Positions 24,998 to 25,408 of a stretch of 32,000 nt of DNA are shown here, one piece after another; the stretch's first letter is position 1; each line of letters opens with the position of its first letter. The stretch spans positions 3,561 through 35,560 of the IMG/VR virus record IMGVR_UViG_3300031820_000002; one strand, written 5' to 3'. Origin of the DNA: a virus. The translations under genes were made by a program, and so were the position numbers. The notes beneath the pieces are model-generated. The model was not told the origin of the DNA and ran no database searches. It was given only the letters and a program-made list of their open reading frames with translations.

Positions 24998-25098
24998 AAA
25001 AGGGAAGTCCGTGAGTGTGCTGCTACGCCAAATGCTCTAAGGGCTGTTTCGGCCGTCGGGGCTCTCGCACTTCTGCGTTCGCACTGCTTCCCCTCAGA

Positions 25099-25125
25099 CC
25101 CGCATTTCCTCTCGTACTGCGCGGG
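25099..25125 (-). other. Sarcin-ricin-loop-like hairpin
   Basis: Sense CCCGC-GCAGUACGAGAGGAAAU-GCGGG. The 12 nt AGUACGAGAGGA (complement of 25107-25118) equal 23S 2654-2665. Confidence 0.75.
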
Positions 25126-25358
25126 CAAAGCCGATCCGTGCTACCTGACTGTTTGGTCACGAGCGCCGAAGCTGTTGGAGGAAACTTACCCGTTTGACCG
25201 GGGTTAGAAATGCCAACGTGCTGCAACGCCGTCTAGTCTTCGCGTCCCTGTGGTTATACTCCGGTCGAGCAGTCTATCCCTCGGTCGTACTATTGACCTT
25301 TGTTGGGGACCGGAAAAGCTTGATTTCGCCTGCGCCGGGCTACTTTCTACCACTCGCA

Positions 25359-25396
25359 ACTCTTCAAAGGATTGCTGCTTCTAAGCCAACCTCCTC
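25359..25396 (-). other. L11/thiostrepton-loop (23S H43)-like hairpin
   Basis: Sense GAGGAGGUUGGCUUAGAAGCAGCAAUCCUUUGAAGAG. The 17 nt at complement 25374-25390 equal E. coli 23S 1059-1075. U1058-A1080 is replaced by G-C and the U1060.U1078 mismatch is retained. Confidence 0.7.
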
Positions 25397-25408
25397 ATCG
25401 TCCTTCCG

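Follow-up and report, generated by a model that had tools for sequence, protein, structure and literature searches.

A tRNA-flanked phage RNA and its homologs resemble the GTPase-associated center of 23S rRNA

The stretch of viral DNA analyzed here (32,000 nucleotides, positions 3,561 to 35,560 of the IMG/VR record IMGVR_UViG_3300031820_000002, called "the window" below) carries on its minus strand a 411-nt non-coding interval located between the genes for tRNA-Pro(TGG) and tRNA-Leu(CAG). The RNA encoded there contains a complete but split copy of the GTPase-associated center (GAC) of 23S rRNA, together with a hairpin of the sarcin-ricin loop (SRL) type. On the basis of the comparative sequence data, we conclude that the two ends of this RNA and its homologs would form the GAC fold, tertiary contacts included. 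More than 100 distinct homologs were found in IMG/VR contigs, metagenomes, and cultured phages, none of which is annotated. These GAC-copying RNAs are a new kind of phage RNA, apparently undescribed so far. As regards their function, the proposal that we tentatively prefer is that they may be trans-acting mimics or sponges of the ribosomal stalk base, binding the host uL11 protein and competing for the ligands of the GAC and the SRL.

Results

Location of the RNA and match to 23S rRNA

The initial annotation of the window had placed an RNA of this kind between the two tRNA genes on the minus strand, and ARAGORN and Rfam agree on both of these genes. The tRNA array around the RNA comprises 39 tRNA genes, all of which are on the minus strand. 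The interval had been described as lacking any credible open reading frame (ORF): the overlapping ORFs are indeed short and start with TTG or GTG, and the only 129-aa ORF present there runs antisense across the tRNA-Pro gene. Comparison with the rrlH gene of Escherichia coli established that the 17-mer GTTGGCTTAGAAGCAGC is identical to 23S positions 1059-1075 and that the 12-mer AGTACGAGAGGA of the SRL is identical to positions 2654-2665. The pairing proposed for helix 43 (H43), with G1058-C1080 and the U1060.U1078 mismatch, the CCCGC(G)/(U)GCGGG stem carrying the SRL hairpin, and the ability of the termini of the RNA to pair (GGAAG/CUUCC, read from the sequence) were all found as described.

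It had also been argued that the two shared words were very unlikely to have occurred by chance. This holds for the 17-mer, which was reached in none of 300 shuffles of the interval, the longest word in common with 23S rRNA never exceeding 13 nt; the GAC match is significant by itself. It does not hold for the 12-mer alone: since words of at least 12 nt shared with 23S rRNA occurred in about 7% of the shuffles, the SRL match is convincing only through its hairpin context and its conservation in the homologs. In a permissive Rfam scan, positions 1098-1122 of the bacterial large-subunit (LSU) rRNA model matched 25368-25392 (15.9 bits), and positions 2743-2769 of the archaeal LSU model matched 25099-25125 (12.4 bits). 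Both scores are far below the gathering score because the segments are short; these two local matches of 25-27 nt are all that the interval shares with the LSU models, and it does not contain a full LSU rRNA (RF02541, threshold 50 bits).

One claim had to be abandoned. The segments that had been taken for the flanks of a shortened helix 42 (H42) (GUAGCCCGGCGCAGG...) are part of the insert described below, and the real helix 44 (H44) and the 3' strand of the closing stem are located at 25012-25028. The alignment to 23S rRNA and the search for homologs that had been recommended left both exact matches standing and brought a whole family to light. The initial observation is therefore confirmed, and its interpretation is partly supported, the structural claim being backed more strongly than its author could know.

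Split organization of the GAC copy

The copy of the GAC is complete, but it is divided into two parts: H43 and the junction 1082-1090 are located at the 5' end of the RNA, and the H44 or "1095" hairpin is present about 330 nt away, at the 3' end. From 5' to 3', the RNA consists of a closing stem corresponding to the top of H42, H43 (1057-1081), the 1082-1090 junction (UUUAAAGAGU), the insert, a UUUG linker, H44 (1091-1100), the segment A-C1102-A-C1104, and the second strand of the closing stem (Table 1).

The copy present in Xanthomonas phage XacN1, which was the sole BLAST match to the window RNA in the phage collection, has in common with the latter the 5' segment and a 3' segment (...CCCUUAGAGCAUUUGGCGUAACAGCACAC). 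This 3' segment holds GC-GUAAYA-GC, in which the "1095" hairpin (H44) of the GAC can be recognized; the corresponding sequence is AAGCGUAAUAGCUCAC in E. coli and GAGUGCGUAAUAGCUCAC in a Paenibacillus 23S rRNA. In the window (25015-25028), G1091-C1092 are paired with G1099-C1100 below a loop of the GUAAUA type containing A1095, and G1087 has its partner C1102. At the other end, H43 shows the 9-nt loop U-U-A-G-A-A-G-C-A, the closing pair C1064-G1074, and the U1060.U1078 mismatch, all within or around the exact 17-mer, and the corresponding columns are conserved throughout the family. The conservation of H44 is partly ascertained, as part of this motif served as a search pattern, but the first 15 loci, which were found with the 5' motif alone, all have it.

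Covariation and tertiary contacts

The covariation analysis was carried out on 60 non-redundant core sequences, in which the insert had been collapsed. In the proposed structure, 91.1% of the cells are paired, as compared with 67.8% in shuffles, and its covariation score is 0.583 as compared with 0.139; none of the 500 shuffles attained this value, and slid controls gave scores of 0.10-0.20. The pairs covary in the way expected from the GAC secondary structure. The closing stem (8-9 bp), which stands for H42, shows all six pair types across the family; the 1057:1081 pair is either A-U or C-G, the 1058:1080 pair is U-A, G-C, A-U, or C-G, and the 1082:1086 pair is U-A, C-G, or A-U. Covariation also extends to the insert helix, in its first four pairs, which lie straight after U1090 and straight before UUUG. 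Among the positions lying outside both search patterns, G1055, G1059-C1079, U1060, A1077, A1084-A1085, G1087, A1088, G1089, and U1090 are 97-100% conserved. U1078 is retained in 87% of the cores, and G1071/C1072 are nearly invariant.

The tertiary base triple of the rRNA domain is also present. In rRNA, according to what Conn, Gutell and Draper are said to have described in 1998, the triple 1072.(1092-1099) covaries from C(C-G) to U(U-A). Among the members found with a pattern that left positions 1072, 1092, and 1099 unconstrained, C1072 occurs with C1092-G1099 in 69 cores, and no mixed cases were observed; U1072 occurs with U1092-A1099 in five cores and with U1092.G1099 in two, these U-type cores being mutually related, so that few independent events lie behind the count.

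A covariance model built from the phage cores only was found to match E. coli 23S rRNA at exactly positions 1043-1116 (42.9 bits, E 9e-9) and a Paenibacillus 23S rRNA with a score of 50.3 bits. When this model is run across the insert, Infernal gives the two halves as separate matches in the case of long inserts.

Members of the family and their genomic context

Scanning IMG/VR with the 5' motif yielded 15 loci, all 15 of which also carry the 3' motif. With the 14-nt 3' motif, at least 120 loci were obtained; among the matches listed, about 80 of the 120 have the 5' motif at most 900 nt upstream, and the remaining 38 include at least 14 members that have diverged or are truncated. The two motifs are 60 to about 385 nt apart in the various members. 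Since the matches to the 3' pattern in 186,000 prokaryotic genomes were almost all due to chance (both motifs were present in only one or two of 120 among the matches listed), the family is strongly enriched in viral sequence. In the copies of Pseudomonas phages pf16 (L255) and UNO-G1W1 (L259), AGCGCAC replaces AGCACAC (A1101 to G); the 3' pattern therefore missed part of the family, the true size of which is above the count.

The cultured phages carrying the RNA include Pseudomonas phages pf16, UNO-G1W1, Milchi, and Astolliot, Xanthomonas phages XacN1 and XbC2, Aeromonas phage 4_4572, Cronobacter phage GAP32, Pectobacterium phage CBB, Serratia phage BF, and several Erwinia jumbo phages. In the records of these phages, the RNA is sometimes hidden under spurious small coding sequences. 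Of the 84 distinct members examined for their surroundings, 51 have tRNA genes within 2 kb, and all the tRNAs present within this distance (276 of 276) share the strand of the RNA. The RNA directly adjoins a tRNA upstream in 21 of these members and downstream in 18. Other copies stand alone: that of XacN1 is immediately preceded by a promoter-like site (TTGACT-17-TAATAT), and a GC-rich hairpin with a U-run after it comes directly behind the RNA.

Real 23S rRNA and ribosomal protein genes of host origin were observed in several records of the phage collection, namely MZ092003 (Pd_22F), the OR84xxxx Listeria/Staphylococcus "phage" contigs, and the CAKLQ* Acinetobacter "phage". Such entries result from contamination or mis-binning of host DNA, and anyone searching phages for rRNA mimics could be misled by them; Pd_22F and several short entries labeled "phage" but holding true 23S rRNA were left out of the family. 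The existence of records of this kind (Pd_22F and the short Listeria and Staphylococcus ones) is the argument for regarding the window RNA as a degraded rRNA fragment or host rRNA contamination without any function. This explanation can be given practically no weight: the split architecture is conserved, with the insert at one fixed site, compensatory changes occur throughout, the RNA is present in complete cultured phage genomes of several genera, and the GAC sequence does not follow the host rRNA (as in the case of G1089-U1090 in GAP32). An rRNA pseudogene or contamination is refuted by the conserved split architecture, the covariation, and the complete cultured phage genomes.

Conserved and variable positions

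The G1089-U1090 form, which is that found in Paenibacillus 23S rRNA, is retained in Cronobacter phage GAP32 although E. coli 23S rRNA has AAAGAAAG; it is also retained in the Pseudomonas and Aeromonas phages (the 23S rRNAs of those hosts were not retrieved). The 1058:1080 pair does not track the host either and differs among the Pseudomonas phages. As neither of these features follows the host, a single evolving family is favored, and repeated capture of the GAC from host rRNA is unsupported.

The nucleotides determining the fold are nearly invariant, whereas positions 1067-1070 and 1096-1097 and the tetraloop of the SRL vary. This pattern of conservation speaks against a strict factor or toxin target and fits uL11 binding or the maintenance of the fold better than a target consisting of a single exact nucleotide. 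Since the positions involved in the fold and in protein contacts are fixed while those contacting factors or toxins are relaxed, uL11 binding is favored as the common denominator of the family.

The GAC fold might also serve purely as a structural scaffold, i.e., as a stable, nuclease-resistant clamp, the function residing in the insert and having nothing to do with ribosomal ligands. The fact that the fold-determining nucleotides are conserved while the exposed loop positions drift, and that the inserts are highly diverse and modular, is compatible with this idea. It is nevertheless decidedly improbable, as many simpler closing structures are available and loops dispensable for the fold still have the rRNA nucleotides (A1067, in about 90% of the members, and A1095); in addition, one clade independently gained the SRL as a second element of rRNA type, and the inserts of the minimal members amount to merely about 45 nt.

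Modules of the insert

The inserts are modular and differ from one subgroup to another. About one quarter of the members have in common a 3' module ...AGU(A/G)NNNN-G-[NNC]ACCCC-hairpin-GGUAAG[GNN]... including a covarying 3-bp helix. In the subgroup to which the window belongs, the insert opens with a kink-turn-like element (NNN-GA-GUGG facing CCC-UUA-GA-NNN), the 3-bp stem of which occurs in nine Watson-Crick versions among 21 distinct cores. In these cores, the sequence agrees with the kink-turn pattern of a 3-nt bulge and tandem G.A/A.G pairs between a canonical and a non-canonical stem; the register of the C-stem (GUGG against CCC) is irregular. An extra hairpin was also observed right after GCAGCCA, between positions 1076 and 1077 of H43, in the loci L083, L028, L113, L118, L114, L078, L065, and L018; here the GAC mimic tolerates insertion at a second place.

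At 25099-25125, a helix of the window RNA ends in a GAGA tetraloop closed by a C-G pair, on which the bulged-G motif (AGUA/GA) is stacked. SRL-type hairpins are confined to a subclade, within the subgroup with the kink-turn-like element, of RNAs about 400 nt long, comprising roughly 20 of the more than 100 sequences: the window RNA, the loci L005, L075, L338, and L367, and about 17 metagenome contigs, some of which are from the human gut. The stems carrying the hairpin covary within this subclade (CCCGC/GCGGG, UUCCA/UGGAA, CCCC/GGGG, UUGC/GCAA, CCCAC/GUGGG), the bulged-G part AGUAC...GGA is kept, and the SRL 12-mer is identical in the window and many of the other members. In the light of these comparisons, the SRL is a real, selected module of the window's clade, and not a feature defining the family; its most constrained part is the S-turn rather than the nucleotides targeted by ricin and sarcin. 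Other words shared by the insert and 23S rRNA (9-10-mers matching 2664-2672, 1947-1956, and 1243-1253) are at chance level, and no further 23S mimicry can be attributed to the insert on this basis.

The isolated 27-nt SRL RNA binds EF-G (Kd ~4 uM) and IF2 (~0.7 uM), and the G2655U substitution abolishes this binding (PMC3496166). In the window subclade, the GAC, the kink-turn-like element, and the SRL occur together across very divergent sequences, and these RNAs might be a factor platform, where the GAC and the SRL, along with uL11 and possibly uL10/bL12 on the kink-turn, would capture or activate translational GTPases or RelA. In favor of this explanation, binding of EF-G and IF2 has been obtained in vitro with oligonucleotides of the SRL and the GAC (PMC3496166), and uL10 recognizes kink-turns in both rRNA and its own mRNA leader (PMC10931766). 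However, the SRL is absent from most members, A1067 and the SRL tetraloop vary, the kink-turn is on another helix than Kt-42, and isolated pieces of rRNA bind the factors only at micromolar affinity (PMC3496166), which makes a factor platform quite unlikely.

Proposed function

The proposal that these RNAs bind uL11 as stalk-base mimics can be broken down as follows. The RNA would be stable, structured, and trans-acting, and in the window phage it would be released from the transcript of the tRNA array by tRNA processing. In the infected cell, it would bind the host uL11 in the same way as the isolated 58-nt rRNA domain, which, in studies by Wimberly and by Conn dating from 1999, was reportedly found to bind L11 tightly. 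Once bound to uL11, it would imitate the stalk base and factor-binding site as a molecule independent of the ribosome and compete with ribosomes for the ligands of the GAC, as well as those of the SRL in the window clade. The candidate ligands are uL11, possibly uL10/bL12, translational GTPases or RelA, and toxins directed against the GAC or the SRL. All in all, the RNA would sequester ligands as a decoy or sponge and would not be catalytic; among the possible downstream effects are a decrease in the uL11 present on ribosomes, which would blunt RelA activation, the absorption of ribotoxins, and the capture of GTPases. A more far-reaching version, which we regard as doubtful, is that in many large phages a free-standing ribonucleoprotein (RNP) replica consisting of the GAC RNA and host uL11, completed in some clades by the kink-turn and the SRL, might capture RelA, GTPases, or defence toxins; the kink-turn present in some clades is a possible uL10/bL12 site.

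Several points weigh against this proposal. The contact positions of factors, thiostrepton, and toxins are only loosely maintained: A1067, although it is kept in about 90% of the members, is replaced by G, U, or C in the others; positions 1068-1070 drift among purines in the divergent members, and 1096 and 1097 vary freely. Most of the family has no SRL, and where it exists, the tetraloop is GAGA or GGGA in most cases and AAGC or AAAA in a few, while one member of the subclade has AAUAC, corresponding to G2655A. The insert is placed in the 5' strand of H44, beside A1088/G1089, which may affect the docking of uL11. In infected cells, uL11 is mostly bound to ribosomes, which may limit the pool that can be titrated. 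As far as uL10 is concerned, this protein needs the Kt-42 region on rRNA (PMC10931766), and the phage closing stem has no Kt-42.

Neighboring genes

The ORF directly upstream of tRNA-Pro and the RNA encodes a cREC_REC domain (Table 1), and the matching position in XacN1, directly upstream of the RNA, is occupied by a LigT-type 2'-5' RNA ligase (L001 2332-2982, plus strand). The cREC protein and the 2'-5' RNA ligase both belong to RNA-end-healing chemistry. CCA-adding enzymes (three loci), HAD_SAK_2 (two loci), and an RNA ligase are encoded near other members. The RNA is thus loosely associated with genes of RNA-end processing and tRNA metabolism, which may merely reflect the tRNA neighborhood. 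No conserved protein partner emerged from all-against-all BLASTP comparisons on 560 neighboring ORFs, which gave small syntenic clusters only, and no universal Pfam family was detected in scans of 147 and 129 neighboring ORFs. The cultured carrier phages found in the phage search were all absent from the tblastn matches to uL11 and bL12. Since there is no constant neighbor and no such carrier phage among the uL11/bL12 matches, any protein ligand must be supplied by the host.

An alternative is that the RNA may be mainly a ribotoxin decoy. It would absorb ADP-ribosyltransferases, SRL endonucleases, depurinases, and other effectors by which the host or competitors cut or modify the GAC and the SRL. 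Such a decoy would complement the spare tRNAs and RNA-repair genes of the phage. The location of the RNA in tRNA arrays, the nearby genes connected with RNA damage and repair (cREC, LigT-type 2'-5' RNA ligase, HAD_SAK_2, RNA ligase, and CCA-adding enzymes), and the presence in the window of an RF1-like protein without domain 1 are in line with this suggestion. Toxins acting at exactly these sites exist, since the bacterial toxin Tre23 targets positions 1095-1098 of H44 (PMC8661411), and sarcin and ricin stay specific on SRL oligonucleotides (cited in PMC3496166). A decoy of this kind is unlikely all the same: the nucleotides attacked by the toxins (positions 1096/1097 as well as the tetraloop of the SRL) belong to the least conserved parts of the mimic, no repair gene consistently adjoins the RNA, and a stoichiometric decoy must outcompete tens of thousands of ribosomes.

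Table 1. Positions of the RNA, its structural elements, and the adjoining genes in the window
Feature	Positions	Strand	Basis
GAC/SRL RNA, whole, as tRNA 3' and 5' processing would release it (411 nt)	24998..25408	-	Flanking tRNAs, family alignment
tRNA-Pro(TGG); its 3' end sets the RNA 5' end	25409..25482 (start 25408/9)	-	ARAGORN and Rfam, 60.1 bits
tRNA-Leu(CAG); RNase P cut at its 5' end would set the RNA 3' end	24913..24997	-	ARAGORN and Rfam, 43.4 bits
Outer terminal stem, 5' strand, GGAAG; partner strand CUUCC at 25003-25007	25403..25407	-	Read from sequence
Outer terminal stem, 3' strand, CUUCC	25003..25007	-	Read from sequence
H42-like closing stem, 5' strand, UGAG; G at 25394 = G1055	25394..25397	-	Family covariation, all six pair types over 8-9 bp
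H43 hairpin (= 23S 1057-1081) with UUAGAAGCA "1067" loop; exact 17-mer 25374-25390	25368..25392	-	23S comparison, Rfam, covariation
Junction = 1082-1090 (UUGAAGAGU); G1087, A1088, G1089, U1090 nearly invariant in family	25359..25367	-	1082:1086 pair covaries
Variable domain between U1090 and H44, 326 nt here; ~45-370 nt in other members	25033..25358	-	Family alignment
Kink-turn-like insert base, non-bulged strand UGC-GA-GUGG	25350..25358	-	21 distinct cores, 9 Watson-Crick versions of 3-bp stem
Kink-turn-like insert base, bulged strand CCC-UUA-GA-GCA	25033..25043	-	Same 21-core comparison
SRL-like hairpin CCCGCGC-AGUACGAGAGGA-AAUGCGGG; exact SRL 12-mer 25107-25118	25099..25125	-	Rfam, 23S comparison, homologous hairpins with compensatory stems
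Conserved UUUG linker between insert and H44; its G opposes A1101	25029..25032	-	Columns i68-i71, 97-100% conserved
H44 hairpin (= 1091-1100) GC-GUAGCA-GC with A1095 (GCGUAGCAGC)	25019..25028	-	1092/1099 covary with 1072
A1101-C1102-A1103-C1104, then closing-stem 3' strand (ACAC-UCA)	25012..25018	-	Family alignment
ORF with cREC_REC (cyclic-phosphate processing receiver) domain, immediately preceding tRNA-Pro and RNA	25489..25863	-	Pfam, E 1.6e-12

Other features of the window

Several other elements were observed on the minus strand of the window. At 24189-24232, a 44-nt hairpin matches domain IV of the bacterial signal recognition particle (SRP, 4.5S) RNA with 40.7 bits (model positions 24-66), which attains the gathering score of Rfam, and has a GGAA tetraloop and both conserved internal loops. 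It is preceded by a promoter-like site (TTGACA-17-TAGGGT) and followed by a ribosome-binding site and an ATG, so that it would form the beginning of an mRNA. This hairpin may imitate the RNA of a host RNP and would then be the second such mimic. A tRNA-like gene without any ARAGORN call is present at about 24410-24540; its acceptor stem (CGACAGG/CCUGUCG) continues into A-CCA, D and T arms are present, and the anticodon stem CCAGU/ACUGG encloses an insert of about 70 nt. A weak Rfam match to YrlA was obtained at 24486-24593 (18.9 bits), and this gene encodes either a tRNA with an intron or a tRNA mimic of the Y-RNA-like (YrlA) type. Two sub-threshold tRNA-like matches in the array, at 26287-26359 (25.6 bits) and 26025-26082 (19.7 bits), have a damaged D arm or are truncated and may be decayed tRNA genes or tRNA-like elements.

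As regards the proteins encoded on this strand, the ORF at 16723-17403 encodes a 226-aa release-factor-like protein matching residues ~159-331 of RF1 (191 bits, below the cutoff) and, more weakly, PrfH. It is devoid of domain 1, the release-factor domain which contacts uL11 and the GAC on the ribosome; the presence of such a protein alongside a GAC mimic in one and the same genome is suggestive. The 184-aa ORF at 18639-19193, which is located in the tRNA array, has an HNH-nuclease domain with its best NCBIfam similarity to the HNH region of IscB and Cas9d, and is probably a homing-type HNH endonuclease. A 405-aa fusion between a NUDIX hydrolase and a thymidylate kinase is encoded at 20781-21998, within the tRNA region.

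Discussion

Among natural trans-acting RNAs, this would be the first one known to reproduce an entire functional center of the ribosome. It is not rare: more than 100 contigs and genomes of phages have it, and its carriers include cultivable phages that infect Pseudomonas, Xanthomonas, Aeromonas, and Enterobacterales. It also provides a testable hypothesis about one class of unexplained stable RNAs in phage tRNA clusters. The uL11 stalk base, where the stringent response is activated, factors are recruited, and toxins attack, is a possible point of conflict between phages and hosts, and an RNP replica of it, if it does exist, would be a new way of disarming the stringent response or ribosome-targeting immunity. 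The natural variation of the GAC fold outside the ribosome may help to distinguish the nucleotides serving the fold and protein binding from those serving translation. From the practical point of view, these regions are at present either left without annotation in the GenBank phage records or mis-annotated there as small ORFs that are spurious.

The initial annotation knew of no described phage RNA of this kind, and our searches agree: no known Rfam family (Rfam 15) was matched at the gathering score or at E-values up to 10, and no description of the family was found in open-access papers and bioRxiv, nor in Weinberg 2017, although a prior description elsewhere is possible.

Among the closest known systems is the GAC, or uL11-binding domain, of 23S rRNA itself (E. 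coli 1051-1108, H42-H44). The two have in common H43 with the UUAGAAGCA loop, U1060.U1078, A1077, the 1082-1086 turn, G1087-A1088, and the GC-GUAAYA-GC H44; the same pairs covary in both, and the model of the phage RNA detects the rRNA domain. Unlike the rRNA domain, the phage RNA is a separate, small molecule which is not part of an rRNA, its H42 is cut down to a closing stem of 8-9 bp without Kt-42, a domain of 45-370 nt and UUUG follow U1090, U1101 is replaced by an A opposite G, and positions 1067-1070 are under relaxed constraint. In the window subclade, the SRL (H95 of 23S rRNA) is also matched as regards the stem, the bulged-G motif AGUA/GA, the C-G pair, and the GNRA loop; the phage version differs from it in that it occurs in one subclade only, its tetraloop is not fixed, and the sequence of the flanking stem is unrelated to H95.

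The mimicry of an rRNA protein-binding site is a feature shared with the leaders of ribosomal protein operons (L10, L1, S15, L20, and others), and the uL10 leader imitates a neighboring part of the GAC rRNA region (PMC10931766). These leaders, however, act in cis in the 5' untranslated regions of ribosomal protein genes and mimic few features, whereas the phage RNA copies a whole domain almost base for base and is bounded by tRNAs or by a promoter-like site of its own and a hairpin with a U-run. A cis-acting leader can be rejected: the RNA is not in the 5' untranslated region of a ribosomal protein gene, being flanked by tRNAs or unrelated genes, and its mimicry is far more extensive. No Rfam leader was matched, and no ribosomal protein family was among the most frequent Pfam families of the neighboring ORFs.

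GOLLD, ROOL, and the species 1 and 2 RNAs of T4 (rnaC, rnaD) resemble the present family in that they are phage-associated structured or stable RNAs located beside tRNA genes. To our knowledge, none of them imitates rRNA. GOLLD and ROOL gave no Rfam match at E-values up to 10 in the region or in XacN1, and the rnaC and rnaD RNAs of T4 are without GAC motifs. GOLLD/ROOL-type RNAs are found beside tRNA genes, with which they are probably co-transcribed, and their function is not known (PMC5737381).

The same pair of elements, the SRL and the thiostrepton domain, was also used in the synthetic "ribosome-in-pieces" oligoribonucleotides (Munishkin and Wool 1997; Mitkevich 2012). Those were laboratory constructs in which the two elements were on separate molecules, whereas the phage RNA is a natural, single molecule, and as such a ready-made "ribosome-in-pieces" for structural work.

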